A stretch of 64,000 nt of DNA from Clostridia bacterium (GTDB lineage: Bacteria > Bacillota > Clostridia > DUPQ01). Each line of letters begins with the position of its first letter. Position 1 is the stretch's first letter. Below are positions 4,379-36,191 of this stretch, in pieces. Under the pieces are notes generated by a model, which had not been told where the DNA came from, did not search any database, and saw only the letters and a program-made list of their open reading frames with translations. The translations under genes were made by a program, and so were the position numbers. Location: assembly GCA_030592085.1 (NCBI GenBank), contig JAUUZV010000001.1, positions 807 through 64,806 on the forward strand. The letters run 5' to 3'.

Positions 4379-4440
4379 TTTTATTTTCGCCTCCGTATCT
4401 TTTATTTGTTATTAATTCTAATTTTTTTAAGCTGTTTTAT

Positions 4441-4596
4441 TTAATCTTCCATATCTTTTCTTCCAATTACATACAAAACTATTAACATTAATCCAACAAC
4501 TAAAGATCCTACCCAAGCACCTGATTGATTTGCCACGACTAAATTTACAACAAACCCAGCAGAAAATACAATATCATATATTATTTTTTTTGTCAT
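4441..4596 (-). CDS. small TM protein, hypothetical (start taken at the internal Met MTKKIIY)
   Basis: Taking the internal Met removes the long overlap with ORF 4593..4787. One TM helix. Confidence 0.25.
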   Translation of the reverse strand: MTKKIIYDIVFSAGFVVNLVVANQSGAWVGSLVVGLMLIVLYVIGRKDMED

Positions 4597-4787
4597 TTTT
4601 TCACCAACCGCACAATCCAATAAAATATTAAAGCAATAGGTAAAACTAAAGTTATAACAAACCAAATCCAATCAGCATCTTTTGCTTGTTGAATTAATGT
4701 TACAACCCAAACCAAAGACAATAATATTCCTACAATAACCATCAATCCTAATGCTTGAAACTGATCCATCATTTTAGAAGCCACCAC
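4593..4787 (-). CDS. small two-TM protein, hypothetical
   Basis: 64-aa ORF with two TM helices. Confidence 0.3.
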   Translation of the reverse strand: MVASKMMDQFQALGLMVIVGILLSLVWVVTLIQQAKDADWIWFVITLVLPIALIFYWIVRLVKK

Positions 4788-5985: not shown

Positions 5986-6260
5986 TTTTATTCATCTCCT
6001 AAAAAATTTTGTTTAATTAAATATAATATTAAAGACATAAAATATACCATATTTATAATCAATTCAATACTATCAAACCCTTTTGTTAAGCCATATAAAA
6101 CTAATACTATAGTAGCTACAAAAATTACAGCATTAAGAGACACATCTAACATATCCATTTTATATCACATTTAGTACTTTTAAAATAATTAAAATTATAG
6201 CTATTAAACCTAATATAATAGCTAACCATGAAACACTTTTATTTAATACATTCCCCATTT

Positions 6261-9936: not shown

Positions 9937-9941
9937 TATCT

Positions 9942-12013: not shown

Positions 12014-12413
12014 TTTATTTTTTAAAGCAGATTTTTAAGAGACCTTTTTAATATGCATGTCAAAACATAGACGTTATAAAACACTTGTGTTCAACAAACA
12101 TAATCCCCTGATTTCATCTTTAAAATTTATCACTGCTTAACGATATATTTTGTTGACAAAATCAAATATTTACTATTTTTACGATATATCTATATACATT
12201 AGAAATTATATATAACCTTTGGCTCTCCAGAACCATCAGACTCTTAAAGGTTCGTTCATTCCTGGACAATAAAAAACACAGGGGGCTTTATACGTACTTC
12301 CATACTTATAAAAACATATATTTATATATGATGAAGTATTCAGCAAGGTTTTATAAATGATGAAATCTACAGAATACAAATGTTTAAATACTATAAAATA
12401 GTATTTTTGAACT

Positions 12414-12758
12414 ATGAATTATCAAATTTTTATTATTCTAACCATAATCCATATATTATTTATGTTAATAATTTTCACAATAAATCATTTTTTTGATGAT
12501 AATTTAATAATGAAAATATTTGCATATTTTAGTGCTTTTAGTTTAAACATAATAACCTTCTATATTTTTATTTATATCATAAACATAGCACAATCATTAA
12601 TACTACTTAATTATTTCTTAATTACATCCATAATTTTTATAATATATTTTATACTTAATGAAGACTGGCTATTTAGAATTAATAAAATCTTAAATTTGGT
12701 ACTAATGAGTTTATTAGGAATTACTATTTATTTTACTTTTATAATTTTAACATTCTAG
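12414..12758 (+). CDS. very hydrophobic ORF, possibly a membrane protein or an artefact of low complexity
   Basis: 114-aa ORF rich in Ile/Phe, located in the divergent intergenic region. Confidence 0.2.
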   Translation: MNYQIFIILTIIHILFMLIIFTINHFFDDNLIMKIFAYFSAFSLNIITFYIFIYIINIAQSLILLNYFLITSIIFIIYFILNEDWLFRINKILNLVLMSLLGITIYFTFIILTF

Positions 12759-13430: not shown

Positions 13431-13691
13431 ATGGAAAATGAAGCAGACATATATAAATATTATATAGGTAAAAGAGTTCGTATAACAAAACAACTGGCTA
13501 ATGGTAAAAATTTTTTCTATAGAGGCTTAGCAACTAAATTAATTAATAATAAATTAATTATTAATGATAAATATGTTGGCCAAATAGTAATAGCTTTTGA
13601 TGAAATTAAATTAATAGAAGTTATGTCACATAAATTAGATGACTTTAAAGATGTTCTGCCAGAAAATACGGACGATAAAAAAAATGAATGA
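13431..13691 (+). CDS. small beta-rich protein, possibly Sm-like or SH3-like
   Basis: 86-aa ORF with the pattern GKRVRI..(n)..G.L..(n)..VGQIVIAFDEIKLIEV. A TATATAAT element lies about 20 nt upstream. Confidence 0.3.
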   Translation: MENEADIYKYYIGKRVRITKQLANGKNFFYRGLATKLINNKLIINDKYVGQIVIAFDEIKLIEVMSHKLDDFKDVLPENTDDKKNE

Positions 13692-16377
13692 AATATTTAA
13701 TGTAAACGATGTCGAAAAAACATTTCAATTAACCAACTATGATGAAATAGAAATACGTGTTATTGAACCTAAAAAAGGTTCAAAAAACATTAAAACATTT
13801 CATACTCACAACAAACAAGATTTTATTAATAAAGCTAAAGAATTCTCAGGACAATCAATAAATCAAATTTATCATAGTGTATTCTTTGGAGTTAACGAAA
13901 GAAAAAAAGGTTGTAGTAAAGAAAAAGATATTTTCAAAGTAAATATTCTTCCTATCGATTTAGATTACAAAAGAGAATCATATACTAGTACTACTGATGA
14001 ACAAGTAAAATATACTATTGAAATAGGTCACAAATTAAGACAGTGGTTTATTGATAATAACTTTGAAGCTCCTTCTATGTCAATGAGTGGAAATGGAGTT
14101 GGATTATACCTAAAAGTACCGGCTATTCCTTTCAAAAACAATGAAGCTATGCTTGATTTTAAAGCTAAGTGGACATTATTTACTAAAAAAATACGAAAAA
14201 TTATAACAAATATGACTGATAAAGTTGAAGTTGATTACATACAAGATCTAAGTAGAATATTTAAAATTGTAGGAACTATGTCTGTAAAAGGAAATAAACA
14301 CAGACTAACAAAATGGATTGAATATAATAATAAAGAAGATGAAAACTTAAAAGAATATATTATGCAAATGGACGCTGAAGAAGAAAAAACCAAACCAATT
14401 GAAGTTAAACCTTTAAGTAAAGATATGTTAAAAAAAATCATTGAAGATGCTAATATTCAAGAATTACTAAATATGAAAGGAGAACAGGGAAAAAGAAGTG
14501 AGTTAGAACAAAAATTATTTAATAAGTTAGTACTAAAAGGAATAACTGATTTTAAACAATTAGACGCTATTATGAGTACTTGTAAGATTGGTAAATGGCA
14601 AGAAGGAACCAAATCTTATAAAGAGCATACATATAAAAATTCTTTAGCGTTTGTTGCTAAACTTAAAAAAAATAAGCCAAAACAAACTGGAAGTTATATC
14701 AGTGTTGAATTAAGCGATAATAGATATTTAATTAATAATAAATCAGGAATTTTTATACAAAAAGAACAGTATGATAAAAATAAAAAAGAACCATTTTATA
14801 CAAAAGAAAGAACAATTCATACTTGGCATATAGAAAAAGTAATTGTTGAACTATCCGCATACATGGATGACTTCTATTTTAAAATATTTGTTACTGATAA
14901 CAAACACAAACGAGAATTAAAAGGAACTATTGATGAAGTAGCTGAACTATTTAAAAAAATTCCTGGTTGTTGTGAATCTAGAAGTGTAAAAGATTGTATG
15001 TCACATCTGGTTAGTTTTTTGCAAACAGAAGAACGAGTAGAAATTGAAAAAAATCCTTTAACAACTGCGTTTGGGTTTGCTTATGATAAAGAAAATAAAA
15101 AAATAATTATAAAAGATGTGCTTCAAAACACTAAAATGGTTGAAGAAGTCACAAAAGAACAACTAAAAAAAGGTTTAGACGCCCTGTTTACTATTATAGA
15201 TAGTTATAATAAATCAGAATCACATAGAAATGAGTTAATAAGAATCATGGCAACTGGTTTGATTTATCCGTTTGGTTATATAAGAAAACAAATGTTACAG
15301 TTAGCTCCATTTGTAATTGTAAATGGACCATCAGGAACTGGAAAGACTTTAAGTGGTGATGTTATTCTTTGTATGTGGGGTTGTTGGGGTAAAAGAGGTT
15401 TTGAACATTCTGGAAGTACTGTTAATGGAGCTTATCAATTAGCAAAAAAATGTAGTGAAAATACAATGTTCTTATTGATAAACGAAGCTGGACAGTTTTT
15501 AGCTAAATTCTCTGAAAATAACGAGATCACAGAATTGTTAAAAAATATGGTTGAATCTCCATTCCCAATACGAGATAAAAAAAGTGGAATGTTTATTTCT
15601 TTTAGGACTCCTTTCTTAACTGCCAACTATCCTTTTAAATTTAGTACTGATGCGTTAAGATTAAAGACTTTAGTGTTCTCTTTTGAGAACGATTTTACAC
15701 ATTCAGGTGATGAAAGAGCAGAAGTAATGCAATTATTAAGTTCATCTGAAAGAGATTTATCTTATATTGGTTCTTGGCTAACAAATAAAGTATCACAACA
15801 TGATAAAAAATATTTTGATATTATTACACAGAAAGATTATGCAAAAGCTTCTATGGATTTACTTAAAGAGTTGCTTGCTGATTCTGGAATGAATCATGAT
15901 TTACCAACACCTCCAGTAGTAGGGTCTTACATAAATAATGAAACTACATCATTTTGGGAAAATATGATTGATTATATGAGAATAGAAATAATAAAAAGAG
16001 CTAAACAAGTTGCAAGTATTGATGAATCAAAAGAAGGATTAAATGTAAGACAGTGTATAGATATAATTATAGATAAAAATAATTTACCTACTTGGTTAAT
16101 AACTATTCACAAAGATGTGGAATTAAAAGTACTTGTACCTGCTGAAATTCAACAATATGTGCAGACATTCTCTAAAGAAACCTTTGAAATGGGAGTTTAT
16201 GAGAAAGAAGTAAAAAATAGAGATGGTTATGATTATGTAAAAAGTAAAAATGTGCGTGTGCACGGTAAATCTACCAAAAAAAGTGGCATGTATGTGTTAA
16301 AGTCAAAATTTGTTGAGTTATTCGAAGAGCGTGCGCACCTTGAAAAACAAAAAACATTGTCTAATTCTGCACCATAA
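13639..16377 (+). CDS. primase-helicase: AEP-type primase domain fused to a D5-like SF3 helicase
   Basis: N-terminal region has ILPIDLDYK (DxD) and MSGNGVGLY (sGxGxH-like), which are AEP primase motifs. C-terminal region has the Walker A VNGPSGTGKT followed by LLINEAG (Walker B). The start may instead be the ATG at 13684 (MNEIFNV). Confidence 0.7.
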   Translation: MTLKMFCQKIRTIKKMNEIFNVNDVEKTFQLTNYDEIEIRVIEPKKGSKNIKTFHTHNKQDFINKAKEFSGQSINQIYHSVFFGVNERKKGCSKEKDIFKVNILPIDLDYKRESYTSTTDEQVKYTIEIGHKLRQWFIDNNFEAPSMSMSGNGVGLYLKVPAIPFKNNEAMLDFKAKWTLFTKKIRKIITNMTDKVEVDYIQDLSRIFKIVGTMSVKGNKHRLTKWIEYNNKEDENLKEYIMQMDAEEEKTKPIEVKPLSKDMLKKIIEDANIQELLNMKGEQGKRSELEQKLFNKLVLKGITDFKQLDAIMSTCKIGKWQEGTKSYKEHTYKNSLAFVAKLKKNKPKQTGSYISVELSDNRYLINNKSGIFIQKEQYDKNKKEPFYTKERTIHTWHIEKVIVELSAYMDDFYFKIFVTDNKHKRELKGTIDEVAELFKKIPGCCESRSVKDCMSHLVSFLQTEERVEIEKNPLTTAFGFAYDKENKKIIIKDVLQNTKMVEEVTKEQLKKGLDALFTIIDSYNKSESHRNELIRIMATGLIYPFGYIRKQMLQLAPFVIVNGPSGTGKTLSGDVILCMWGCWGKRGFEHSGSTVNGAYQLAKKCSENTMFLLINEAGQFLAKFSENNEITELLKNMVESPFPIRDKKSGMFISFRTPFLTANYPFKFSTDALRLKTLVFSFENDFTHSGDERAEVMQLLSSSERDLSYIGSWLTNKVSQHDKKYFDIITQKDYAKASMDLLKELLADSGMNHDLPTPPVVGSYINNETTSFWENMIDYMRIEIIKRAKQVASIDESKEGLNVRQCIDIIIDKNNLPTWLITIHKDVELKVLVPAEIQQYVQTFSKETFEMGVYEKEVKNRDGYDYVKSKNVRVHGKSTKKSGMYVLKSKFVELFEERAHLEKQKTLSNSAP

Positions 16378-16727: not shown

Positions 16728-17105
16728 ATGAAAAGAGTAGAATTACTAAAGATTGATGTAGATAAGTATGTAAACGATAAAGCCCAGATTGTTTCAGCTG
16801 AGGTAGTTAAGTTGAAATTTGGAACAGTAATAAAAGTTTTAACAAACCCGTTAGAACTTAAAGGAGATGATAAGCTCCCAGAAGGTCGTCATTTGACTGG
16901 AAGTATTTTATTAGGATTGGTAGATTCAGATGAAGGTTTGGCTATTGGAATAGATGGTAAATCTGAAAAATGGTTAATTGCTCATGGAGTAGATGTGACA
17001 AAAGATATTCCAGATGACTTAAAGATTGGAGATCAATGCAAAGCACTTCTTGGAAAAGATGTAGTTGTTCAAAAGAATACTGGCGGTTTCTTAGAAATTG
17101 CTTAA
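16728..17105 (+). CDS. hypothetical acidic protein
   Basis: 125-aa ORF with a strong SD, GGAGGAAATTAAAAA, before the ATG. Confidence 0.45.
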   Translation: MKRVELLKIDVDKYVNDKAQIVSAEVVKLKFGTVIKVLTNPLELKGDDKLPEGRHLTGSILLGLVDSDEGLAIGIDGKSEKWLIAHGVDVTKDIPDDLKIGDQCKALLGKDVVVQKNTGGFLEIA

Positions 17106-17125
17106 TTTTTTTTATTTTTTTTAAA

Positions 17126-17518
17126 ATGCGAAATGATGGTGTTAATTATGAAGAACATATTAACAAGTTTTTTAAAGGAACGAACGTGTCTAATATACAT
17201 AATTACTGTGATATAGAGACTAAAAGTTCGTTATATGAAGTAAAAGGATGTAAAATATACTTAGAAAACAAGACTGGGTCAATGAGTTTAGGAAGATACC
17301 AAATAAATTTTGATAATCACAAACAATTAAAACAAGAAGCTGATAAGTTAAATAAAAAAGCAAAATATGTTTTTTTGTTAAGAATTGACAGACAAAAAAT
17401 ATTTAAAACAATGTCGTGGTTGGTAGTAAATCATATATTATTATTAGAAGGTCGAGAATTTAAAAAAGAAGATAGTGAAACAAAAATGTATAATATAAGA
17501 TTAAGGAGCGTGTGGTAA
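17126..17518 (+). CDS. PD-(D/E)xK nuclease-like protein, possibly an Hjc/RecB-like resolvase
   Basis: YCDIETKSSLYEVKGCK fits a D...E.K nuclease core. The internal Met at 17126 was chosen because the track ORF start at 17036 overlaps the upstream gene. Confidence 0.3.
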   Translation: MRNDGVNYEEHINKFFKGTNVSNIHNYCDIETKSSLYEVKGCKIYLENKTGSMSLGRYQINFDNHKQLKQEADKLNKKAKYVFLLRIDRQKIFKTMSWLVVNHILLLEGREFKKEDSETKMYNIRLRSVW

Positions 17519-17519
17519 A

Positions 17520-17909
17520 ATGTTTAAATTAAAAAAAGAATTTAATATTAGTTGTAGTCATAGACTTTTTGATATGGATGCGTCAGATGAAACAAATAGT
17601 ATAATTTTTGGTAGATGTTGTAAAAATCATGGGCACAATTATAAAATAATTCTTTATCTTAAATCTGACTCATTAAAGCATGGTATGTTATTAAATTTTA
17701 ATGAAATAAAAGACATTTTCAACTTACATATAGATAATGTATATGATCATAAATTTTTGAATGATTGTCCTGGTTTTGAAAACGTTATACCAACTGCAGA
17801 AAATATGTGTAAAGTGTTTTTTAATAAGCTTAAAGTACATTTATCGACTTTATATGCTGTAGAAATATATGAAACAGAAGGTGCTTCTGCTATTTATGAG
17901 GATGATTAA
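17520..17909 (+). CDS. queD: 6-carboxy-5,6,7,8-tetrahydropterin synthase (QueD/PTPS family)
   Basis: CSHRLFDMD, CCKNHGHNYKI (CxxxHGH) and DHKFLND are QueD/PTPS signature motifs. SD AAGGAG upstream. Confidence 0.7.
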   Translation: MFKLKKEFNISCSHRLFDMDASDETNSIIFGRCCKNHGHNYKIILYLKSDSLKHGMLLNFNEIKDIFNLHIDNVYDHKFLNDCPGFENVIPTAENMCKVFFNKLKVHLSTLYAVEIYETEGASAIYEDD

Positions 17910-17910
17910 A

Positions 17911-18495
17911 ATGAAAGTGAATGAAATGTTTGAATCGTTGCAAGGCGAAGGTCGTTTTGTTGGATATCCTGTTATGTTTATTAGAATGTCAGGGTGTAAT
18001 AGGTCTTGCGTCTTTTGCGACACATCTTATCATAACGAAGGAGAAGAACTGTCAGTAGAACAAATGGTTAAAAAGATAGATAAAAGTAATATGAATATTA
18101 TTATTTTTACTGGAGGAGAACCTATGATGCAGTTCGATGATATTATAAAAGTTATTGAACAAACAAAAGATAAACAATATCATATTGAAACTAATGGTGA
18201 TTTATTAGTTCCTGAAAGTTATTTTGATTATGTATGTTTTTCACCTAAAAGTGAAGAAGGTTTAAATAAAGCATTAGGATATCCTGGTATATGTGATATA
18301 AAAGTAGTTACAGATTTAAATTTAAATAAAAATATGTTAGAGTCAGCGACGATGATAATGCCGTTAACAACTATATCAGATATTAAAAATTTAAAAATTA
18401 AACAACAAGTATGGAAGTATTGTGAGAAACATAACAAGCGATATGCACCTAGACTTCATGTGGATGTTTGGGGAATGTCTAAACGAGGAGTTTAA
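17911..18495 (+). CDS. queE: 7-carboxy-7-deazaguanine synthase (QueE, radical SAM)
   Basis: Start is the ATG after GAGGATGA. MFESLQGEGRFVGYPVMFIRMSGCNRSCVFCDT carries the radical-SAM CxxxCxxC cluster motif and a QueE-like N-terminus. Confidence 0.75.
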   Translation: MKVNEMFESLQGEGRFVGYPVMFIRMSGCNRSCVFCDTSYHNEGEELSVEQMVKKIDKSNMNIIIFTGGEPMMQFDDIIKVIEQTKDKQYHIETNGDLLVPESYFDYVCFSPKSEEGLNKALGYPGICDIKVVTDLNLNKNMLESATMIMPLTTISDIKNLKIKQQVWKYCEKHNKRYAPRLHVDVWGMSKRGV

Positions 18496-18885
18496 ATGAG
18501 AGATAATACAGATAATCTAAACAAAATGTATATTAGTTGGGAACAGTTTGGTATTGATATTGATAAATTAGCAAATCTTATTAGTTTAGAAGCTAGAGAG
18601 TTTGATAGCATTTATGGAATACCTCGTAATGGCACTATTATATCTAGTATTCTATCAAAAATGTTAAATTTGAAAATGGTTGATTATCCAGACTCCACTA
18701 GAACTCTTATAGTTGACGATATTTCGGATTCAGGAAAAACCTTAAAGGAATATAAGAACAAATTTAACGGTAATGTGATAGCTTGTATTTTTTATCGACA
18801 AAATACAGAAATAATGCCAGATATAGTTGTATATGATGCACAAAAAGATTGGATTGTATTTCCTTTTGAATTAAATGAAAAATAA
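18496..18885 (+). CDS. xanthine-guanine phosphoribosyltransferase-like type I PRTase
   Basis: TLIVDDISDSGKTL is a PRPP-binding motif. The N-terminal YISWEQF, the central GIPRNGTIISSIL and the C-terminal VVYDAQKDWIVFPF are collinear with E. coli Gpt. Confidence 0.65.
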   Translation: MRDNTDNLNKMYISWEQFGIDIDKLANLISLEAREFDSIYGIPRNGTIISSILSKMLNLKMVDYPDSTRTLIVDDISDSGKTLKEYKNKFNGNVIACIFYRQNTEIMPDIVVYDAQKDWIVFPFELNEK

Positions 18886-18899
18886 TTAATATAATAAAA

Positions 18900-19307
18900 A
18901 TGGCATCTGAAATGATCAATAACGAAGAATTAAACAATATGATACCTAAAGATCGTCACTCTGTTTTTAAAAAATTATCAGCAGAGGAAATAAGAAACTT
19001 ACATCCATCATATGTTAAAGTCATTGAAGAAAGTGGTATTACAGTTGAAGAGTATTTAGAACGAGTAAGAACAAAAAAATATCAAAAAAATAATAATCAA
19101 AAAATGAATGAACAACAAATGAATGATTTGGTAGATAAAGAAGTTGAGAAGGTAAAACAGCGGGATAAAACTGATGTTTTGAATAAGATTAAACACGCAA
19201 AACCACCTAAATCCGGCTCAAGGTTTGAAGATGTGTTAAAAGGTTATGAAGAAAAATATAAATATAAGTACAAGCGATTTGTCAAAGATTACAGGAATTC
19301 ATCTTAG
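18900..19307 (+). CDS. hypothetical Lys/Glu-rich protein
   Basis: 135-aa ORF of charged low complexity. Confidence 0.35.
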   Translation: MASEMINNEELNNMIPKDRHSVFKKLSAEEIRNLHPSYVKVIEESGITVEEYLERVRTKKYQKNNNQKMNEQQMNDLVDKEVEKVKQRDKTDVLNKIKHAKPPKSGSRFEDVLKGYEEKYKYKYKRFVKDYRNSS

Positions 19308-19382
19308 TTATGTTTCACGATTAAAGAAACAAGTTAAGGAATATTTAGAAGATCAAAATAAAAAACATTAAATGAGGTAAAA

Positions 19383-19877
19383 ATGATACAAAATCCAGAA
19401 ATGATTATAGAAAAAGATTTTGTTTCTCCAGTTACAGAGGAACAAATACAAATGAATGGAATTGATTTGAGAGTTGAAAGTGTACAGTCTATTGAAGGTG
19501 TTGTTTCTATATTTAAAGATAGTAAACAGTTGCCAAATTATATAAATATAAAGAGTGAAGTTAATTTAAATAAAGGAAAAATTTGGAAATTAGAACCTGG
19601 TAAAGCTTATCTTTTACAAATAGCAGAAACAATAAAAATACCAGAAGGAATGTGTGCTATGGTTTGGATGCGTTCAACCTTTAATAGAAGTGGAATTCCT
19701 ATCTTTGCCTGTGTTTTTGATTCAGGTTATGAAGGCAAACCAACATTCACAGCATATCCTACAATTCCTTTGTATTTAGAAAAAGGAACAAGGGTGGCTC
19801 AGATAGTTTATTTTAATGCTGATACTGCTAAAATGTATGTTGGTCAGTATCAAGGAGAAGGAATAAAAAAAGAATGA
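19383..19877 (+). CDS. dCTP deaminase/dUTPase-superfamily enzyme
   Basis: NGIDLRV, LEPGKAYLLQ and VFDSGYEGK are the beta-barrel dUTPase/Dcd motifs. SD GAGGT upstream. Confidence 0.6.
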   Translation: MIQNPEMIIEKDFVSPVTEEQIQMNGIDLRVESVQSIEGVVSIFKDSKQLPNYINIKSEVNLNKGKIWKLEPGKAYLLQIAETIKIPEGMCAMVWMRSTFNRSGIPIFACVFDSGYEGKPTFTAYPTIPLYLEKGTRVAQIVYFNADTAKMYVGQYQGEGIKKE

Positions 19878-19892
19878 ATGAGGTAATATAAA

Positions 19893-20123
19893 ATGAAAAA
19901 AATGAATACTTTAAGTAGGGCAACAATTTATGTGCATCGAAATCATGAAATGAGAGAAAAAGGAAGACTCAAATTTTTTAAACATGAAAGAATTAGGATT
20001 GAAATTAAATTAAAAAATAAAGAAAAAGCTGATTTCATTTATGCTGATGAGCTACAGAAATATCTAGCCGAAAATTTTGAATATGGAACAAAGTTAGAAA
20101 AGGAGGAGAAAAAAGATGAATAA
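19893..20123 (+). CDS. hypothetical small basic protein
   Basis: 76-aa ORF with an SD upstream. Confidence 0.3.
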   Translation: MKKMNTLSRATIYVHRNHEMREKGRLKFFKHERIRIEIKLKNKEKADFIYADELQKYLAENFEYGTKLEKEEKKDE

Positions 20124-20946
20124 AGAATTACCAAAATATAGAAATAAAGAAGATACAACAGGTTTAGCAATACAAAAAGTTGGTATACGAGGAGTAAGAG
20201 CACCGTTTACTTTAAAAACAAAAAATGGTGGAGATCAAGAAACTATAGGAACTTGGAGTATATATACAGATTTATCAGCACAATTTAAAGGTGTTAGTAT
20301 GAGTCTTATGGAAAGAATACTACATCAAACTTTACAAAATGAAATAAGTGTTGATATATTAAAAGATATAACAACTCAAATTTATGAAAAGTCTGAACAC
20401 AAATCCAAAGATGTATATGTGAAAGTTAAATTTCCATACTCAATTAAAGTTAAAGCACCAGCATCTGGTTTTGAAGCTGTAAAGGTTTATGATTGTATGT
20501 TGGAAGTTAGAAATATTGATGGAAAGATTAAAAAATATTTAACTGTAAAAGTTCAATATATAGCAACTTGTCCATGTGCGGCTGAATTAGCTGATGAATT
20601 AATGAAGACTGAAAATAAACAAAGTATGGCACATCAACAAAGAGGTTTTGCTGAAATTACTATAGAATTTGGAAATGAAATTGTATGGATAGAAGATGTG
20701 ATTAACATTGCAGAAAATGAATTAAAAGCTACACCATATCCAGTTATTAGAAGGCCAGATGAACAAAATATTTGTTATACAGCACGTCAAAACTGTGCTT
20801 TTGTAGAAGAAGCTGTAAGAAATATTTGTCTTGGTCTTATTAAAGAATCTAGAATTTTAGATTATGTTGTAGTATGTAATCATGAGGAAAGTATTCATTC
20901 TCACTCAGCCGTTGCTGTAATGAATGATGGAAAGGAGTTAAAATGA
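20116..20946 (+). CDS. folE2: GTP cyclohydrolase FolE2/MptA family (GCYH-IB)
   Basis: N-terminal VGIRGVRAPF, GVSMSLMERI (compare GxHMSRF) and the conserved CPC motif (ATCPCAAEL). SD GGAGGAG upstream. Confidence 0.65.
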   Translation: MNKELPKYRNKEDTTGLAIQKVGIRGVRAPFTLKTKNGGDQETIGTWSIYTDLSAQFKGVSMSLMERILHQTLQNEISVDILKDITTQIYEKSEHKSKDVYVKVKFPYSIKVKAPASGFEAVKVYDCMLEVRNIDGKIKKYLTVKVQYIATCPCAAELADELMKTENKQSMAHQQRGFAEITIEFGNEIVWIEDVINIAENELKATPYPVIRRPDEQNICYTARQNCAFVEEAVRNICLGLIKESRILDYVVVCNHEESIHSHSAVAVMNDGKELK

Positions 20947-22787: not shown

Positions 22788-23906
22788 ATGACTATGAAAG
22801 CCGTATTATATATGAGATTGTTTGAAGATTCTGGAATAACTAAATTACAAATATTTAAAAATAAAAAAGAACATCTTGTTGAGTTACCATTTAAACCTTA
22901 TTTTTTTGACTCAGCCAAAATAGATGGGTTAGTTGGAGAAGAAGTTATTTTAAAACCAGTTGATACATTACAACCTACTAAACTTTTTAAATATGAAGTT
23001 GATTCTGTAAAAGATATACCTAAATTAAGAACTAAAACGAGTATAGCTGCAGATGTAAATTATTTATTACGATTATGTATAGATCAACCTAGCTTTTTGA
23101 ACCAGTATTTTCAAACAGATGAATTAACATTTTTATATCTTGATATTGAAACTGATAGTATTGGAATTTTCCCTAAGCCTGAATTGAACCCAATTATTAG
23201 TATAGGATATGCTATTAATGATGGTCCAGTAAAAGTAATTAAAATTGATAAATTAGAAGATGGTGATATAAAACTTTTATTAGAGTTTAATGAAGTTATG
23301 GAAAAGTACAATCCTGATGTCATAGTTGGATATAATATTTTAATGTTCGATTTACCATATATTTTGAAAAGAATGAAAAAGAATGGAATAAGTACAGATT
23401 GTTGGACAAGAGGTAAAACATCTGCATTTTTCACAACTAGTTCTGGTAATGAAGTTTATAATATTCAAGGAAGGTTTGTATTTGATGTGATTAAAGAAGT
23501 GTTTCAAGATCAAACAATTCATGGCATTTCGAAAGGATTAAAACCAGTTTCAAAATATTTTAAAGTTGATGAAAAAATAAGACAAATACCAGGATATGAA
23601 GATTATCAAATTATAACTGAAGATGTTCATATCACGAGGCCATTAATCGGAACAGATAAATTGGCAAAATATAATGAGAGTGATGTTCTTATCACACGTG
23701 AATTATGTAAAATGTACATTGCTAATGTGATAGCGTTTGCAGAAATGTTACATGCTCCATTAAATATGATGGCTAAACGAACTACAAGTATGATAGGTTC
23801 TATTTTTTATGCAACCGAACTTAAAAAGAAAGGTATTATTGAATGTACTATGCCTAATTATAAAAGACACCCAGATGTATTTGGAACTTTAAAGGAGGGT
23901 TATTAA
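22788..23906 (+). CDS. polB: family B DNA polymerase, N-terminal half (3'-5' exonuclease domain)
   Basis: Exo I is YLDIETD, Exo II is YNILMFDLPY, Exo III is YNESD. The gene ends in TAA, which overlaps the ATG of the next gene. Confidence 0.75.
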   Translation: MTMKAVLYMRLFEDSGITKLQIFKNKKEHLVELPFKPYFFDSAKIDGLVGEEVILKPVDTLQPTKLFKYEVDSVKDIPKLRTKTSIAADVNYLLRLCIDQPSFLNQYFQTDELTFLYLDIETDSIGIFPKPELNPIISIGYAINDGPVKVIKIDKLEDGDIKLLLEFNEVMEKYNPDVIVGYNILMFDLPYILKRMKKNGISTDCWTRGKTSAFFTTSSGNEVYNIQGRFVFDVIKEVFQDQTIHGISKGLKPVSKYFKVDEKIRQIPGYEDYQIITEDVHITRPLIGTDKLAKYNESDVLITRELCKMYIANVIAFAEMLHAPLNMMAKRTTSMIGSIFYATELKKKGIIECTMPNYKRHPDVFGTLKEGY

Positions 23907-25105
23907 TGCCTTTTTTTAGAGAGTCTCGATTTAATGATGAGAAAGGAATACAAGGAGCTATTGTAGAGATTTATAAAACTGGTTTAATACGAAAAATAAA
24001 AAAGGTTGATTTTTCTGCTTTTTATCCTAGCATTGTTATGAGTTTTAATTTATCACCAGAAACAACAAAGATAAAGGAATATTTACCTTATACTAATAAA
24101 TATGATTTTGATATACAAAAGGATAGAACATTGTTATATATTCCAGATAATAGAATTAATAAAACAGTTGTCATTGAAATAAATAACACTATTCAAGGAT
24201 TTCTTCCAGCAAAACTTATTGAATTTAAAGAAAAAAGAGATAAGATTAAATTAAGATTAAGAGAAAAAAATTTAACACCAGGTGAACAAGTTTATCTTAA
24301 TAGTTTATCATGGACTTATAAAATTTTATCAAATTCTGTTGGTTATGGAATTAATAAAAATGCATGGTTTAAATATGGAGATTTATCAATATCAATAGCA
24401 ATTACTGGATTGGCTAGATATTTTATTCAGTTTGTAATGGACTTAAATCTTGATAAGAATATTGAAGTAGATACTGATGGTATATATGTAGATGGTGATA
24501 TAAATATTGATGATGTTAATTATAAAATAAAGGAACATACATTAGATAAATTTAATATTCCATTTGTTAAAAATTATTTATTTTTAGAGTTAGATGAATA
24601 CGATGCTGGATTTTTTTATAAAACTAAGAATTATCTTTTATTTAATAATGGTAAAGTTATAAAACATGGTGTTACATTTTTATCAAGTAGTAAAACAATA
24701 CTTTTTAAGAAAGCTTTAGATAAAATAGCTGAATATATATTTAATAATAAGTCAGTTATTGAAGCTGTTAATATACTTATAAATGAAGAAAGTACACTTA
24801 AAGATTTTACTATGAAAACTAATATAAATCAACCTATTTCTGAATATAAAAATGATGGATGTTTGCAAAAACAATTAGCTAAACAAGTTAAAGAACATTT
24901 AAAACAAGATTTACAAGTTTCTGATACAATCGATTATATTAAGACCAAAGATGGCTATAAAATATTAACGATAGCAAAGTTACACGAAGTTGATAAAAGA
25001 TATTATTATGATCAATTACAAACGTTAATTAATATTTTTACTGATGAAAAAATTAGTATTGAGAACGGTGGAGCTGTAATACAAAAAAAACTTGAAGGGT
25101 ATTAG
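23906..25105 (+). CDS. polB: family B DNA polymerase, C-terminal half (polymerase domain)
   Basis: Motif A is DFSAFYPSI, motif B is KILSNSVGYG, motif C is VDTDGIYV. It is in a different frame from the upstream half and overlaps it by 1 nt. Confidence 0.75.
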   Translation: MPFFRESRFNDEKGIQGAIVEIYKTGLIRKIKKVDFSAFYPSIVMSFNLSPETTKIKEYLPYTNKYDFDIQKDRTLLYIPDNRINKTVVIEINNTIQGFLPAKLIEFKEKRDKIKLRLREKNLTPGEQVYLNSLSWTYKILSNSVGYGINKNAWFKYGDLSISIAITGLARYFIQFVMDLNLDKNIEVDTDGIYVDGDINIDDVNYKIKEHTLDKFNIPFVKNYLFLELDEYDAGFFYKTKNYLLFNNGKVIKHGVTFLSSSKTILFKKALDKIAEYIFNNKSVIEAVNILINEESTLKDFTMKTNINQPISEYKNDGCLQKQLAKQVKEHLKQDLQVSDTIDYIKTKDGYKILTIAKLHEVDKRYYYDQLQTLINIFTDEKISIENGGAVIQKKLEGY

Positions 25106-26495: not shown

Positions 26496-26747
26496 ATGGA
26501 AGCAAAAAATGTGTTAGTTGATTACAATGTAGTCAGCGAATTAGCAGGACATCAAGAAAATAAAGGTGTTCAGTTAATAGAAGCAGCTAAAGATATCTTT
26601 AGCAAAGTAAAAGAAAAAGGTATGCAATGTGCAGTGAAAGGAGTTTTTAAAACTTTTAAATCTGTAGATGATTTGATGGATATTTTGATGGACGCTGTTC
26701 ATAATAATTACAGAATATCTGTTTATGATGAGGATTTAGGAGGTTAA
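26496..26747 (+). CDS. hypothetical small protein
   Basis: 83-aa ORF with SD. Confidence 0.3.
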   Translation: MEAKNVLVDYNVVSELAGHQENKGVQLIEAAKDIFSKVKEKGMQCAVKGVFKTFKSVDDLMDILMDAVHNNYRISVYDEDLGG

Positions 26748-26748
26748 A

Positions 26749-27102
26749 ATGGAAAAAAAACATAAACATAAAGGTGTAGATAGGAAACATCTTATTTCAA
26801 GAAAACATAAAAATCCAAAAGTTCAAAAGTTTCATAATGAAGCTTTAAAAAAGGATAAAAAAGATGTTAAAGTTGTTTTACCAACTAAAGTGGTAAATAA
26901 ACCTATTAAAACTGCAAATGTTTCGGTTGATGCTGATGGTTTTATTAGTATTAACGTAGATGCTTTATCATTTAAAGGTGTACGATTAACTTTTACAAGA
27001 CAAGAAGGAAGAACAAAAAAAGAAGTAGCATTACAAATAGATAAAATTCCTTGTAGAAGTGGTGGACATAATCGAAGAAAAGTTAAAGACATAAAAAAAT
27101 AA
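26749..27102 (+). CDS. highly basic His/Lys-rich protein, possibly nucleic-acid binding
   Basis: Begins MEKKHKHKGVDRKHLISRKHKNPK. Confidence 0.35.
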   Translation: MEKKHKHKGVDRKHLISRKHKNPKVQKFHNEALKKDKKDVKVVLPTKVVNKPIKTANVSVDADGFISINVDALSFKGVRLTFTRQEGRTKKEVALQIDKIPCRSGGHNRRKVKDIKK

Positions 27103-27133
27103 TTTTTTTATTTTTTTAAATGGGTGACACAAA

Positions 27134-27763
27134 ATGAATGAAATGGAAACAAAAAAAATAGCAATAGTTGGTGCTGGTGGCATTAATAGTTGGGCTATAA
27201 AATGGTTACATCAGTTAATTGAAGATTTTGATAGAAAATTAATTTATGTAAAGATCTTCGATAATGATGAAGTAGAAGAAAAGAATTTACTACGTAATAA
27301 TCAAAATTTTCAAATAGATGATTTACTATCACAAAAGGCGGAAGTTCTTTCTGAAAGATATAACTTTGATTGTGAAAACATTTTTATTACTGAGGATAAT
27401 ATTCAAAAATTAGCTAGTTTTGATGATATAATTTTAGGAGTAGATAATCATAAAACTAGGAAATTAATTTATGATTTTGCATTAAAGAATAATAAATATG
27501 TTCTTGATATGAGAGCTCAAGGCACTATCATGGGTTTTACAATTATAGATGGTAGTAAAGACATGGATTATTATAATAAAAAAATGTTTAATAATTTAGA
27601 AGTTATGGAAAGAAAAGGTAGTTGTCAGTTAAAGAGTGATGTTGAAAATGATCATATAGAAAATGCTAATCGAGTAATAGCAATGTTAGGTATTTATTCA
27701 GTTTATTTGAAAAGATTAAGAAAAGAAAAAGTATCTACGGACGAATGGAAATTTGTATATTAA
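27134..27763 (+). CDS. ThiF/MoeB/E1-like adenylyltransferase (adenylation domain only)
   Basis: IVGAGGINSW is the Gly-rich loop. FDNDEVEEKNLLRNNQ matches DxDxVExSNLNRQ. LGVDNHKTRKLI matches the DN..R motif. There is no C-terminal CxxC region. Confidence 0.6.
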   Translation: MNEMETKKIAIVGAGGINSWAIKWLHQLIEDFDRKLIYVKIFDNDEVEEKNLLRNNQNFQIDDLLSQKAEVLSERYNFDCENIFITEDNIQKLASFDDIILGVDNHKTRKLIYDFALKNNKYVLDMRAQGTIMGFTIIDGSKDMDYYNKKMFNNLEVMERKGSCQLKSDVENDHIENANRVIAMLGIYSVYLKRLRKEKVSTDEWKFVY

Positions 27764-29861
27764 AATGGTAGACACAATTTTGTTAGATGAGTTTAAATTT
27801 TATAATAAACAGAAGATTGTTATAGATGAAGCTATAATTAATTCATTTGAACAAAAATTGAAGAAAGGAGAAAATAGATTAAGATGGACTAATAATTTAT
27901 TTGCTGATAATAAGATGTCGTTTGAATTTTCAAAAAGTGATGATGAAAATTTTATTGCTATGCATTCTTATTATTTTAAAGTAACTACAAAACAGATAGA
28001 TAATGTAAAAACAATTTGGAATGATTATGTATTTTTTAATTTTAATTTAACAAATAATCAAGAACAAGTTTTAGAAGAAATTGATTATTCATCAGGAGCA
28101 ATACAAGAGGAGTTAATAATAGATGATAAATTAAGTAGAACATTTGATAATTTTGAAGATTTTTTAATATTATTAATTGAAAAAGAAACTTTTTCTTTTG
28201 ATATAACTTTTAATTTTTATGAAGGAGCTGAATATGAAGAGCAAAATAAAAAGGATCAAACAGAAATTTTAGAAAGTTTAAATTTTATTTTGAAAGCAGT
28301 CTTTAATGAAGAACAGATGTTAGAATTGCCTAAGTATACTATTAATTATAAACACATGAGAGATTCATTATATCATATTTTTAAAGTAGTTGAGAAAAGA
28401 TATAATAATAAAAATTATCGTATAGCTTTTATCACACATATTAAAACCAATAGTGATTTTATTTTTAAGGTTAAGGTGTATTCTGAAGATAATGAAGAAT
28501 ATAATTATATTGATGAAAAGGTATTATATGTAAATGATAGTGATAATAATTATTATTTAGATATAAATCTAAATGAATATAATAATATAGGTTCATTACG
28601 AGTAGATATGAATATTTTTAAAATTTTAGCTAAATATATTTCAAAAGTAATTGGTGAAACAGATAGTAGAATAATTACATCTAATATATTTAATTTTTAT
28701 AAATCAAAAGTGAGTTTTTTTAATAATTGGGATGATGAAGATATACAAGATGAAAAAGAATTGAAGATAATTGCTAAATATTTAGATTTGTTAAGAGGAG
28801 GACGAACAATTAAGATAGAACAAGTCAAAATAAATAAAACAAGTATTAGTCTTGATGATGATTCATTTAAAATTGAATTTAAAGAAAGTTTTTTTGATGT
28901 TGCTAGTAATTTTCTTGAATTAAGAAGATTGATATTAAGAAATGATGCTAAATATAATTTTAATCTATTATATGAAAAAATATTATCACTTTCTATGTTA
29001 CAAATTATAGATCGTTCTAATGTGAAAGACGATGATTATAAAGAATTTGAAGAATGTAGTTTTAAAGTTAATGACATGGTTATTAATATTGATAAAGGAG
29101 ATAATGGAAGAATACGTATTAATGATATTTTTTCTAGAATAGATGACGTCGATGATGTTTTGAATAGAGCAATTTGCTATAATAATGTTGATGATTATAA
29201 CCAGTACTTAAAAGATGTTAGTTATATTGGAATTGATTTAAAAAGAATGATCAATAATGGTATTGTGATATGGTTACAAAATCCATTACATAGTTTATTT
29301 CAACTTCATGGCGATACTTCATTAGAAAAAATGCAAGTTAGGTTTAGTTTATTTTGGGATTCAGAAAAAAGATCAAGAATATATTTACATTTAAACAATA
29401 AAAAATATTTAATTAAAAAGAAAGGAAAATTTAAAACTTTTTTTAATAAGCCAGTAGCAACGGTAAAAATTTCACAATTAAATGTATTATTAAAAGAGTG
29501 TTTAGAAGAGTGGAAACCTGGCCAATTATTAGAAGTAGTAGAAAATGCTTTAGAAGAGTTTAAAATTATTAAAGCTAGAGGAGAAAAATTAGTCAAAGAA
29601 ACAATAGAAGAAATTAACGCATTAAAGAATAATATAATAATAAATGGGCGAGAAATTAATGGCTTTTTATTAAGAGGTATATTGACTAATAAAGAATACT
29701 TTATTGAAAATGAAAACTTAGATGTGTATAAAAAAATTGATGGTGTTTGGAATCGAAGATGTGTAGTAAGTGATCCAAACAAATCAAGAATATATGAAGA
29801 CAGATTAGCCAATCGATTGATTAATATTTATAATGAAAATCCTAATATAACAACAATATAA
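27753..29861 (+). CDS. large Asn/Asp-rich hypothetical protein (702 aa)
   Basis: Long ORF overlapping the ThiF-like gene by ATG..TAA. No motif recognised. Confidence 0.45.
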   Translation: MYIKMVDTILLDEFKFYNKQKIVIDEAIINSFEQKLKKGENRLRWTNNLFADNKMSFEFSKSDDENFIAMHSYYFKVTTKQIDNVKTIWNDYVFFNFNLTNNQEQVLEEIDYSSGAIQEELIIDDKLSRTFDNFEDFLILLIEKETFSFDITFNFYEGAEYEEQNKKDQTEILESLNFILKAVFNEEQMLELPKYTINYKHMRDSLYHIFKVVEKRYNNKNYRIAFITHIKTNSDFIFKVKVYSEDNEEYNYIDEKVLYVNDSDNNYYLDINLNEYNNIGSLRVDMNIFKILAKYISKVIGETDSRIITSNIFNFYKSKVSFFNNWDDEDIQDEKELKIIAKYLDLLRGGRTIKIEQVKINKTSISLDDDSFKIEFKESFFDVASNFLELRRLILRNDAKYNFNLLYEKILSLSMLQIIDRSNVKDDDYKEFEECSFKVNDMVINIDKGDNGRIRINDIFSRIDDVDDVLNRAICYNNVDDYNQYLKDVSYIGIDLKRMINNGIVIWLQNPLHSLFQLHGDTSLEKMQVRFSLFWDSEKRSRIYLHLNNKKYLIKKKGKFKTFFNKPVATVKISQLNVLLKECLEEWKPGQLLEVVENALEEFKIIKARGEKLVKETIEEINALKNNIIINGREINGFLLRGILTNKEYFIENENLDVYKKIDGVWNRRCVVSDPNKSRIYEDRLANRLINIYNENPNITTI

Positions 29862-29873
29862 AATAAAGAATGA

Positions 29874-30077
29874 ATGGAGGATATAAAAATGGCAAAAACA
29901 TTAATTGTAGCAAGTAGAGTTAAAGAACTTTGCAAGTACCCAGGTGGTAAAAAAGATTTAAATATGTCATCTGGATTGTCTGGCGCCCTTACTTTAAAGG
30001 TTGAACAGATTATAACAAAAGCTTGTAAAAGAGCTATAGAAAATGGTAGAACTACCGTTATGATAAAAGATATTTAG
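29874..30077 (+). CDS. histone-fold-like small DNA-binding protein (alpha3-truncated?)
   Basis: IVASRVKELCK (alpha1-like), ALTLKVEQIITKACKRAIENGRTTVMIKDI (parallels archaeal HMf IASEAIKLARHAGRKTIKAEDI). SD GGAGGA upstream. Confidence 0.35.
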   Translation: MEDIKMAKTLIVASRVKELCKYPGGKKDLNMSSGLSGALTLKVEQIITKACKRAIENGRTTVMIKDI

Positions 30078-34620: not shown

Positions 34621-35829
34621 ATGAATAAAATTATATTAATAATGATGTCGATAATAATGATTGGAACAGTTTATGCTTCAGATTATATTTATAATTTGGA
34701 TTATACAGATTTACCTTTTAATGATACATTAGATATTATTGTTAATGGTGTTAATAATTTAACATTATATATTGATTATAGTAATTTTACATATGGACAT
34801 GATACTTTAAATTTTACCTCTAGTTCAATTATTTTAAGTGTGAATGTACATATTCCAAAAAATACTGAACCTATTAATTATACTGAAAGTGTTATACTTT
34901 ATAATAATGATATTAATTTTACACATAATCTTACATTTGAATATAATATTTATAATGATACACCATCACCAACTGTTGATTATATTCAATTAGATTTTAA
35001 TGAATATAAATATTCTATTTGTAGTTATAGTTTACCTTGGAATAATACAAAAAAGATTACAATTAGTGGTGTTTTTGGTCAAGAAATTTATACATTATTT
35101 AATGAAGATTTTATAGATGTTGTTGATAAATTTATTATAGGAACAAGTAATTTTTCTATTATTGATGTGAATATGCATTTAAATGAAAATGTAACTGAAG
35201 GAGTTCATACAAGAGTAATTCAGTTTAGTGTTGTGGATGGTTCTAGTAATATTACAATTCATTTTGATGTTCAAAATTGTATTAGACCACCACCAGAATA
35301 TAATGCAATGATAGAAGCATGTGCAATAGTTAATAAGACACCTCAAGAAGCCTTATATTGCCAACAATTACAAACTGAATATAATTTAGCATTATATCAA
35401 GCAATGTTAGAAGCACAAGAAGTTCGTATAGAACAAAATACAACTATTAAATATGTTAATAATACTGTAAGAATTCCAGTTTTAGATTTAAATGATCAGT
35501 CTATAATTACTGCATTAAAAGAAATTCCTAGAACATGGAATCAAATGATTAGTGAACAACGAGAAAAAGATAAACTAATAACAACTAAGAATGATGAGAT
35601 TAAAGCATTAATTACTGATAAAGAAACTCTTCAGAGAAATATACGAGAGGAAGTTGGAAAAGCTGTAAATTCAATGACTGAAGAAAGTAAATTAAAACAA
35701 AATACTATTGATATGTATGAAGATAAATATATGAAGAAAGCCACTTTAGGTTGGCTTATATTTTGGGTTATATTTATAGGTGGTGGATTTTATTTATATA
35801 CTATATATCAAGATAATAATATGTGGTGA
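34621..35829 (+). CDS. secreted sequon-rich type-I membrane protein with C-terminal coiled coil and TM anchor
   Basis: Signal peptide MNKIILIMMSIIMIGTVYAS, more than 15 N-x-S/T sequons, and a C-terminal heptad-like region followed by a TM helix. Confidence 0.45.
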   Translation: MNKIILIMMSIIMIGTVYASDYIYNLDYTDLPFNDTLDIIVNGVNNLTLYIDYSNFTYGHDTLNFTSSSIILSVNVHIPKNTEPINYTESVILYNNDINFTHNLTFEYNIYNDTPSPTVDYIQLDFNEYKYSICSYSLPWNNTKKITISGVFGQEIYTLFNEDFIDVVDKFIIGTSNFSIIDVNMHLNENVTEGVHTRVIQFSVVDGSSNITIHFDVQNCIRPPPEYNAMIEACAIVNKTPQEALYCQQLQTEYNLALYQAMLEAQEVRIEQNTTIKYVNNTVRIPVLDLNDQSIITALKEIPRTWNQMISEQREKDKLITTKNDEIKALITDKETLQRNIREEVGKAVNSMTEESKLKQNTIDMYEDKYMKKATLGWLIFWVIFIGGGFYLYTIYQDNNMW

Positions 35830-36191
35830 AAATGGGAAATAAAATAAATAGTGAAGATGCAATGGATTTTTTAATGACTTATGGATGGGCAATTTTAGTA
35901 GTTATAATAGCACTTGGAGCCTTGTTTTATTTTAATATATTATCATTAAATCCTGATGATTATATAGGGCTTAATAAAACAGAGATTGAAGAAGTCAATT
36001 GCACAACATATAAGAGAATAATTCCACTTGCTTCTAATTGTAGAGAAGTTAATAAATTATTATTAGAAGGAAAAGATTATATATTTGATGTAGAACATAC
36101 AGTATTATGTACTAATGAAGATCATAACCATCAATGGATTATTAAAGCTGGAAGTACGATAGATGCATATATAATGAGGTGTATTAATTAA
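35823..36191 (+). CDS. small protein with N-terminal TM, hypothetical
   Basis: 122 aa. MGNKINSEDAMDFLMTYGWAILVVIIALGALFY. Confidence 0.35.
   Translation: MVKMGNKINSEDAMDFLMTYGWAILVVIIALGALFYFNILSLNPDDYIGLNKTEIEEVNCTTYKRIIPLASNCREVNKLLLEGKDYIFDVEHTVLCTNEDHNHQWIIKAGSTIDAYIMRCIN

Follow-up and report, generated by a model that had tools for sequence, protein, structure and literature searches.

Conjugation of ubiquitin-like proteins (Ubls) in prokaryotes has so far been known as a tool of the host, as in the small archaeal modifier proteins (SAMPs), the cyclic-oligonucleotide-based antiphage signaling systems (CBASS), Bil and Bub. The archaeal SAMP/UbaA/HvJAMM1 system and the TtuB/TtuC/TtuD system of Thermus each combine a beta-grasp protein ending in Gly-Gly (GG), a single ThiF/MoeB-type activating enzyme (E1) with a Cys in its crossover loop, and a JAMM metallopeptidase. 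Neither uses a conjugating enzyme (E2), both perform conjugation as well as sulfur transfer, and Thermus adds the effector enzyme TtuA. Here we describe a gene cassette of related composition at positions 26496-29861 of a 64,000-nucleotide stretch (positions 807 to 64,806) of contig JAUUZV010000001.1 of the Clostridia bacterium assembly GCA_030592085.1. This whole stretch, referred to below as the window, is a virus-like sequence of approximately 27% G+C content (GC) in which blocks of genes switch strand. The cassette appears to be a viral system, so far undescribed, for tagging proteins (or for carrying sulfur) without a recognisable E2. Unlike in the SAMP and Ttu systems, its E1 is only about 200 aa long and has neither a Zn site nor a rhodanese domain, its Ubl falls outside the Pfam families, and all of its components are encoded by the virus. 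Its obligate partner is a protein of 400-800 aa with no match to a known fold, in contrast to the PP-loop thiolase of those systems.

Several other systems share part of this composition. Bil (BilABCD), type II CBASS with Cap2/Cap3, and Bub are likewise operons with an E1, a Ubl and a JAB or other peptidase, and they conjugate proteins in the course of virus-host conflict (PMC10557695, PMC10097602, PMC11601596). However, they are host-encoded and have a recognisable E2 or E1-E2 fusion, whereas the cassette is viral and has none. Bub in addition forms oxyesters with a Cys-less E1, whereas the cassette E1 has an invariant Cys. The antiphage Ubl models in PADLOC (Bil, CBASS type II and others) gave only weak and partial matches, all of them to the E1. 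The PRTRC genes of plasmids and integrative and conjugative elements also form a mobile-element set in which a ThiF-like protein is joined by small partners, and PRTRC_ThiF (TIGR03736) is the best NCBIfam match of the E1 (E 1.9e-9). That match reaches 37.2 bits against a cutoff of 144.75, and neither ParB nor any other PRTRC family is among the Pfam families listed for the window (25 of 45) or among NCBIfam matches of the large protein. Phages lambda and T1 encode TAPI, a Ubl with a conserved C-terminal Gly, beside TAPK, which joins a JAB to an NlpC/P60 domain (Iyer et al. 2006, PMC1779556). TAPI/TAPK resembles the cassette in its phage-encoded Ubl and adjoining JAB. It has no E1, belongs to a tail module and fuses its Ubl to another domain, whereas the cassette lies in a replication/early region and includes an E1. 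The Nidhogg viruses linked to Helarchaeota share with the cassette the presence of E1-like genes in uncultivated archaeal sediment viruses, a likeness drawn from their description; the Nidhogg report describes no viral Ubl, large partner or cassette. We found no description of the cassette in the searchable literature, where papers on magroviruses and Poseidoniales viruses mention no ThiF, JAB or ubiquitin. The cassette is set apart from the known systems by its viral encoding, its E1 of about 200 aa without a Zn site, its Ubl outside Pfam, and a partner family without a match to a known fold in the place of an E2, a ligase (E3) or an effector.

The genes of the cassette (Table 1) are separated by gaps of 1, 31 and 1 nt and form one viral operon encoding, in order, the Ubl, a His/Lys-rich protein, the E1 and the large partner. 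The original prediction had regarded the E1 as a stand-alone domain and had proposed a search for a beta-grasp protein ending in GG nearby. Such a protein is encoded by the first gene of the operon, and the E1 is thus accompanied by its own Ubl. The final codons of the Ubl gene, TTA GGA GGT TAA (26735-26752), place a Shine-Dalgarno-like GGAGG 6 nt 5' of the next ATG, and the Gly-Gly codons therefore double as the ribosome-binding site of the following gene. Related loci were grouped into three tiers: window-like loci from sediment and other metagenomes (tier 1), bacteriophage-like loci (tier 2) and marine archaeal-virus-like loci (tier 3). A census of the E1 subfamily comprised 118 loci, which collapsed into 54 clusters at 90% identity.

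Table 1. Coordinates of the cassette genes, of other features of the window and of genes next to the cassette in related loci.
Feature	Location	Coordinates	Strand	Remarks
Ubl, 83 aa	Window, cassette	26496-26747	+	Predicted beta-grasp; C-terminus ...YDEDLGG-stop; presumed E1 substrate
His/Lys-rich basic protein, 117 aa	Window, cassette	26749-27102	+	Between Ubl and E1; tier-1 virus group only
Minimal E1-like/ThiF adenylation domain, 209 aa	Window, cassette	27134-27763	+	Pfam ThiF match; conserved Cys164; no Zn-binding CxxC pairs
Large partner, 698 aa (702 aa from TTG 27753)	Window, cassette	27765-29861	+	New family; core at residues ~430-698
Possible membrane-anchored JAB/MPN-like protein, 168 aa	Window	988-1494	-	N-terminal transmembrane helix; EVEIPVCLGG upstream of exact JAMM spacing HNHNNGVCRLSETD
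QueD	Window	17520-17909		7-Deazaguanine precursor cluster (16728-20946)
QueE	Window	17869-18495		Same cluster
Phosphoribosyltransferase (PRTase)-like ORF	Window	18496-18885		Same cluster
dCTP-deaminase-like ORF	Window	19383-19877		Same cluster
FolE2	Window	20116-20946		Same cluster
Band_7/flotillin-like protein (325-527 aa) with small membrane proteins	L001	6021-9911		Variable module
Same module	L056	6184-9932
Same module	L007	528-3381
Same module	L020	611-2867
Sigma-70-type factor	L033 (tier 2)	11856-12683		Just 3' of E1
Same	L024 (tier 2)	11558-12358		Just 3' of E1
TFB-like Zn-ribbon protein	L098 (tier 3)	4738-5727		Between short large-protein homolog and E1
Same	L135 (tier 3)	5083-5946		Same position
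Same	L110 (tier 3)	4986-5837		Same position

By its motifs, the product of the third gene is a member of the E1-like/ThiF-MoeB adenylation superfamily. Residues 3-139 match Pfam ThiF (PF00899) with an E value of 4.8e-12 and 46 bits (cutoff 28.1), and the core motifs originally reported are all in place: the Gly-rich loop G13-A-G-G16 (GxGG), the motif DNDEVEEKNLLRNNQ (D43-N-D45-E-V-E-E-K-N51-L-L-R54-N-N-Q57), K68, and G-V-D104-N-H-K-T-R109, which contains the Mg-binding Asp (D104). Fourteen positions are invariant in 18 aligned members of the subfamily (G13, G15, G16, S19, D43, D45, N51, K68, D104, R109, D125, R127, C164 and R196). The reported lack of a C-terminal CxxC region was also borne out, as no CxxC occurs in the 209 residues of the protein, and the 18 subfamily members that were aligned have none either. 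The two CxxC pairs that make up the structural Zn site in E1s of the MoeB/ThiF type are thus missing. The single conserved Cys, Cys164 in the motif GSCQL, is 60 residues C-terminal to Asp104 and is followed by 45 residues. Its distance from the Mg-binding Asp is about the same as that of ThiF Cys184, MoeB Cys187 and UbaA Cys188. ThiF and MoeB of E. coli have approximately 250 aa, and at about 200 aa the viral E1 is unusually small.

Database comparisons place the E1 at some distance from the named families. Besides PRTRC_ThiF, its NCBIfam matches include the ThiS adenylyltransferase ThiF (4e-9), MoeB and UbaA, all far below their cutoffs. Two PADLOC models labelled 'E1-E2' were matched weakly and in part, PDLC00842 with an E value of 2.5e-4 over residues 2-83 and PDLC00848 with 1.3e-3, and nothing in PHROGs fell below an E value of 0.07. 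The best matches in a profile search of the PDB were TcdA (7e-4) and MccB (0.01), both confined to the Rossmann half. In phage genomes, the E1 matched solely unrelated, longer ThiF genes of jumbo phages, which lie in other neighbourhoods.

An AlphaFold2 (AF2) model of the 83-aa Ubl, calculated from an alignment of 4 sequences, has a mean predicted local distance difference test score (pLDDT) of 86.4 and the topology b-b-a-b-b-a-b, the order of a beta-grasp fold. The top 50 Foldseek matches in the PDB are mostly Ubl, SUMO and PB1 beta-grasp domains, none of them significant (E 0.02-0.3, template modeling score 0.4-0.55), and no Pfam family is matched. The C-terminal GG is a consistent property of these proteins. 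It is present in 11/11 tier-1 homologs from the protein database and related contigs, directly before the stop codon in 10 and as GGEQQ in 1 (P0156). All 32 tier-2 loci have it too, with GG-stop in 27, the endings GGN, GGC, GGQ or GGNAN in 4, and a tail of about 110 aa after the Ubl domain in 1. In tier 3, GG or GG plus a short extension (1-2 residues) was found in 26 of 38 non-redundant loci; several of the remaining 12 offer little sequence on the upstream side, and the E1s of 4 among the 38 loci score low and possibly belong to other families. By comparison, 3.2% of the 60-110-aa ORFs in the same loci end in GG, with the true Ubls counted in. A Ubl was detected in 48 of the 54 E1 clusters, and most of the misses are truncated flanks. 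The Ubls of tier 1 and of the tier-2 phage group have a common VVSxxGH motif and could be aligned by hhalign over 57 columns (P 0.003).

The second gene of the operon encodes a protein with 21% Lys and the N-terminal motif HKH[KE]G..H.I..HK....H. Homologs occupy the same position in six related loci (L001, L003, L005, L014, L056 and L058). Its Pfam matches were below cutoff: ExbD with an E value of 0.017 (15.6 vs 25.4 bits) and Ntox35 with 0.16 (13.1 vs 23.6 bits). The protein could be an adaptor or a target of the system. A degenerate JAB was also considered for this position and rejected, as the protein has no similarity to JAB.

The large partner is a real, conserved protein for which the original prediction of no recognisable domain still stands. 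An identical protein is on record (P0001, from an NCBI contig of 67,018 bp) with 698 aa, starting at ATG 27765, one base past the E1 stop codon, and the alignment of homologs favours the same start. The gene overlap reported earlier is therefore found only if the ORF is begun at TTG 27753 and disappears with the better-supported ATG. Its description as Asn-rich is accurate in number (10.6% Asn vs 6.5% in the other long ORFs of the window), although the excess is mostly compositional and goes along with a GC content of 22%. A word-indexed search returned 8 full-length homologs at 35-44% identity, and a profile search against the representatives of 1.8 billion clusters returned 272 of them at E<=1e-3. 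No family was matched in Pfam, PHROGs, PADLOC, NCBIfam or the PDB sequences, and the PDB sequences, queried with the protein itself as well as with three profiles, gave only coiled-coil noise. The sole recurrent weak Pfam match of the family is DUF7737 (6 of 70 members, best E 0.004), of which we found no mention in the searchable literature. The large protein was also absent from 50,697 deposited phage genomes (INPHARED) when queries from every tier were used. AF2 predicts a multi-domain alpha/beta protein (pLDDT 75.5, predicted template modeling score 0.53), for which Foldseek returned nothing in the PDB at E<=1e-3 and, in BFVD, just three unnamed viral proteins of 416-452 aa. These three are probably short-form members of the family.

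Such short forms (390-490 aa) align to residues ~430-698 of the large partner with an hhalign probability of 98% (E 2.8e-13), and the C-terminal ~265 residues are thus the core common to the whole family. Among 70 long-form members, R219, G638, Y645 and C666 are invariant, and E210, Y246, D250, N453, C471, G499, D679, R684 and N690 are at least 90% conserved. With the short forms added, invariance is limited to G638, C666 and N690, while L609, D679, R684 and T697 are nearly invariant. The C-terminal signature is approximately G-x-[WYI]-x-C-[IVM]-[VDN], 8-14 residues, [DEQ]-x-L-x2-R-x3-[LIM]-x-N-[DE], 6-8 residues, T-[LI]. The predicted structure of this region is a long helix, a five-strand meander that ends at Cys666, a loop and another helix. 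The Gly638/Cys666/Asn690 pattern fits better with a catalytic or thioester-carrying site than with a passive target.

Strong evidence for a link between the E1 and the large protein comes from their co-inheritance. The order Ubl, His/Lys-rich protein, E1, large protein is repeated in the tier-1 loci L003/L004, L005 and L014 and, as judged from gene sizes, in the Joint Genome Institute (JGI) contig of P0002; L019 has the E1 and the large protein. An alignment of distant members of the large-protein family, 17-27% identical to the window protein, recovered the 32 IMG/VR loci of tier 2, which have 33-41% GC, a class II ribonucleotide reductase (RNR), a sigma-70-type factor and PolA. In all 32, the large gene is followed at a distance of 0.2-1.6 kb by the gene of an E1 belonging to this subfamily. 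The reciprocal scan with an E1 alignment again found the tier-2 loci and added tier 3 (approximately 33-34% GC in four loci checked). There the order is class II RNR, a gene of about 120 aa, a short large-protein homolog, a TFB-like Zn-ribbon protein, the E1 and, further on, a JAB, with the Ubl upstream and a chaperonin gene nearby. The combination of RNR and chaperonin recalls the group B magroviruses (Philosof et al., PMC5434244), which by analogy tier 3 may resemble. Over the whole census, 52 of the 54 clusters have a large-protein homolog that shares the strand of the E1 and is -22 to 3990 bp away from it. In one of the two exceptions (L106) the E1 is at the start of the contig, and in the other (L063) a 556-aa ORF just 5' of the E1 has the C-terminal signature of the family and scores under the threshold of the hidden Markov model. 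The functional link between E1 and large protein that was originally suggested is thus upheld by the conservation of the pair.

Mere synteny would be an alternative to such a link, with the large protein being a replication or structural protein functionally untied to the E1. Some tier-1 genomes lend themselves to this explanation: in L001/L002 and L056/L057, a 3.8-4 kb insert with a Band_7 gene separates the E1 from the large gene, and in L007 and L020 the Band_7 module lies 5' of the large gene on contigs that stop before the E1 position. However, the pair has been kept in three virus groups that have no other locus genes in common detectable by BLAST; when the loci of the two best-sampled groups, tiers 1 and 2, were compared all against all by BLAST, no families other than those of the E1 and its large partner were common to both. 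The pair has also survived differing insertions and an inversion of order, from E1 followed by large protein in tier 1 to large protein followed by E1 in tiers 2 and 3. The census fits poorly with pure synteny, which we consider very unlikely. In one tier-1 locus (L058), a gene inserted directly between those of the E1 and the large protein (9258-9989) encodes a 243-aa radical-SAM protein with the motif CNLKCSYC and a Cys-rich C-terminal region; this protein is not QueE.

The distribution of the cassette also bears on who uses it and against whom. Defence was one of the roles considered in the original prediction. A defence system of the host is unlikely, because every cassette locus is a viral contig and scans of 185,579 prokaryotic species (one genome each) with the tier-1 alignments turned up no E1 and no large protein of the tier-1 type. 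Conversely, a viral E1 might hijack a ubiquitin-like pathway of the host, in which case the large protein would be an unrelated early protein. This has been proposed for the three ThiF/E1 homologs of the Nidhogg viruses, which would harness the ubiquitin systems of Helarchaeota (Rambo et al., bioRxiv 10.1101/2021.07.29.454249), and relatives of the window virus resemble Nidhogg viruses in carrying Ro60/TROVE and extra ThiF genes. However, the cassette brings its own Ubl, detected in most clusters as described above, its E1 is inherited together with the large partner, and it also occurs in bacteriophage-like genomes (sigma-70, PolA) whose hosts have no ubiquitin. Since the cassette has its own Ubl and is found in phages, hijacking appears improbable. 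The Ro60/TROVE gene, joined to a vWA domain, lies at 2501-3982 of L001 and echoes the gene content of Nidhogg viruses.

The JGI contig that carries P0002 has a second Ubl set 3-7 kb 5' of its cassette (locus coordinates 2885-6678). The set consists of a ubiquitin/Rad60-SLD-like protein of 82 aa, a UQ_con-like E2 of 244 aa, a JAB of 255 aa and a ThiF protein of 229 aa, and this viral genome therefore holds two Ubl systems. The window is unlike that contig, as phmmer found no second ThiF in it, and no second ThiF, E2 or ubiquitin family is among the 25 of 45 Pfam families listed.

JAB peptidases accompany the cassette in the other two virus groups. A JAMM ORF was detected in 39 of the 54 E1 clusters. 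In tier 2, a JAB with the motif HxHx7SxxD is present in 30 of the 32 loci (Prok-JAB in Pfam, E 1e-13 for L033), and in tier 3 the motif reads HTHPFGxAYFSxTD. Ubls with C-terminal extensions (GG plus 1-4 residues) are common exactly where a JAB is present. For the window, the original prediction had named the ORF at 988-1494 as a JAB-like membrane protein and partner of the system. The first part of this proposal is weakly supported by the JAMM motif, the transmembrane helix and an hhalign match to the viral JABs (P 9e-4); no Pfam, PADLOC or NCBIfam model is matched. The second part is not supported, because the ORF is outside the cassette, 26 kb away in another block of genes and on the other strand, and JABs within cassettes occur solely in the other virus groups. 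Another ORF (35823-36191) contains an HxHx7SxxD string and was rejected as a candidate, as it has no similarity to JAB.

From the gene content, motifs, predicted folds and co-inheritance observed here, we infer the chemistry and the targets of the cassette as follows. The 83-aa beta-grasp protein would present its C-terminal Gly-Gly to the minimal E1, which would bind ATP/Mg, adenylate the terminal Gly and probably then carry the Ubl on Cys164. The activated Ubl may be passed to, or used by, the ~700-aa protein through its Cys666 domain, so that the large protein would be either an E2/E3-like transferase or the primary acceptor, with the His/Lys-rich protein as an accessory factor or target. 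The JAB of tiers 2 and 3 might trim the Ubl precursors (GG plus 1-4 residues) and could also reverse conjugation. By analogy with SAMP/UbaA, the likeliest output of the cassette would be the E2-less covalent attachment of the Ubl to protein, a proposal that we hold to be evenly balanced between right and wrong. Because the cassette is always found beside a transcription factor gene of the virus itself or beside replication genes, the target could be the transcription or replication machinery of the host. In its fullest form, our proposal is of a virus-specific, E2-less Ubl conjugation pathway that is common to bacteriophages and archaeal viruses, including relatives of Asgard-linked viruses, and that runs from the minimal E1 through the new Ubl and the Cys-dependent transferase domain to the early tagging of viral or host proteins. 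We offer this fuller version tentatively, as possible but on the doubtful side. If true, a module carried by uncultivated viruses of at least 54 lineages, both bacteriophage-like and archaeal-virus-like, would reverse the picture of prokaryotic Ubl conjugation as a host tool, and would add a new Ubl family, an unusually small E1 and a large family in the place of E2/E3.

Several observations weigh against conjugation. No E2, E3 or RING protein is detectable for the cassette: neither UQ_con nor Prok-E2 was found by Pfam across 70 members of the large-partner family, PADLOC finds nothing for the large partner, and hhalign gave a probability of 0.2% for its C-terminal domain against four human E2s. 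We therefore rejected the large partner as an E2 (UBC) protein, and its E2-reminiscent arrangement of helix, meander, Cys and helix is kept as an analogy; the invariance of Cys666 alone does not imply E2 membership. Missing from the E1 are the Zn site and the greater part of the C-terminal region with which MoeB and ThiF bind the Ubl, so that it may depend on a partner or have another mode of action. The E1s of tiers 2 and 3, moreover, carry Tyr in place of the Arg of the canonical NLxRQ, and the virus group of the window itself has no JAB inside the cassette. Finally, a set of Ubl, E1 and JAB that includes no E2 is just as typical of pathways with a sulfur carrier.

In a sulfur-carrier pathway of the ThiS/MoaD, TtuB or CysO type, the adenylated Ubl would be converted to a thiocarboxylate by means of a host persulfide, the JAB would process the carrier, and the large protein would be a sulfurtransferase that makes a thio-modified nucleotide, base or cofactor. 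The same E2-less architecture is found in TtuB/TtuC/TtuD/TtuA, CysO/MoeZ/Mec and QbsE/QbsC/QbsD. The NCBIfam matches of the E1 to ThiF and MoeB and the invariant Cys of the large partner would suit this chemistry, and so would the nucleotide-metabolism and replication genes around the cassette (a class II RNR in both tier 2 and tier 3; the dCTP deaminase-like gene, the deazaguanine genes and PolB in the window). However, the cassette and its flanking sequences yielded neither a rhodanese or cysteine desulfurase nor a PP-loop ATPase or Fe-S motif, the large protein has one universally conserved Cys and no nucleotide-binding motif, and no thio-modified base is known for such viruses. We judge a sulfur carrier to be rather unlikely, though the main alternative to conjugation; if it is right, it points to a thio-modification made by viruses. 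Either outcome bears on the pre-eukaryotic diversification of ubiquitin-type chemistry.

Apart from protein tagging and sulfur transfer, the E1 might adenylate a small-molecule or nucleic-acid carboxylate, for example converting 7-carboxy-7-deazaguanine (CDG) to 7-amido-7-deazaguanine, as the original prediction had speculated; the GG protein and the large protein would then be bystanders. The window encodes FolE2, QueD and QueE, while QueC and TGT/DpdA are not among the Pfam families listed (25 of 45) for its 115 ORFs, and the closest solved relatives of the E1, TcdA and MccB, act on carboxylates other than those of Ubls. However, homologs of QueE are present in tier-1 loci only, and no deazaguanine genes lie within 6-8 kb of the cassettes of tiers 2 and 3. 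The E1 is, in addition, accompanied by the GG-ended beta-grasp protein in 48 of the 54 clusters, and its similarities to the PDB entries are weak (E 7e-4 to 0.01) and limited to the Rossmann half. This speculation has thus found no support, and we consider it extremely improbable. The viral pathway may end at CDG or may continue through a transglycosylase or an amidase that escaped recognition.

Other genes of the window provide hints of an archaeal host, as do the Nidhogg-like features of related viruses. A 912-aa protein without a Pfam domain (13639-16377) has matches among deposited phages and viruses solely in Drs3 and vir080, two viruses of Methanobacteriales, with 25-29% identity along a portion of its sequence. 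Directly 3' of the large gene, a 67-aa ORF (29874-30077) encodes a histone-fold protein that matches PDB entries 8cmp and 8fvx ('CBFD_NFYB_HMF domain-containing protein') with E values of 6e-5 and 1e-4 and DUF1931 with 0.05; BLAST found no copy of it in the other loci retrieved. The family B DNA polymerase of the window is encoded in two abutting ORFs, one for the exonuclease part (22788-23906) and one for the polymerase part (23906-25105), the stop codon of the first and the start codon of the second sharing a base. As a further RNA-related function among the relatives, L056 encodes at 16846-18298, together with PTH2, an HD-domain enzyme that resembles CCA-adding or poly(A) polymerases.

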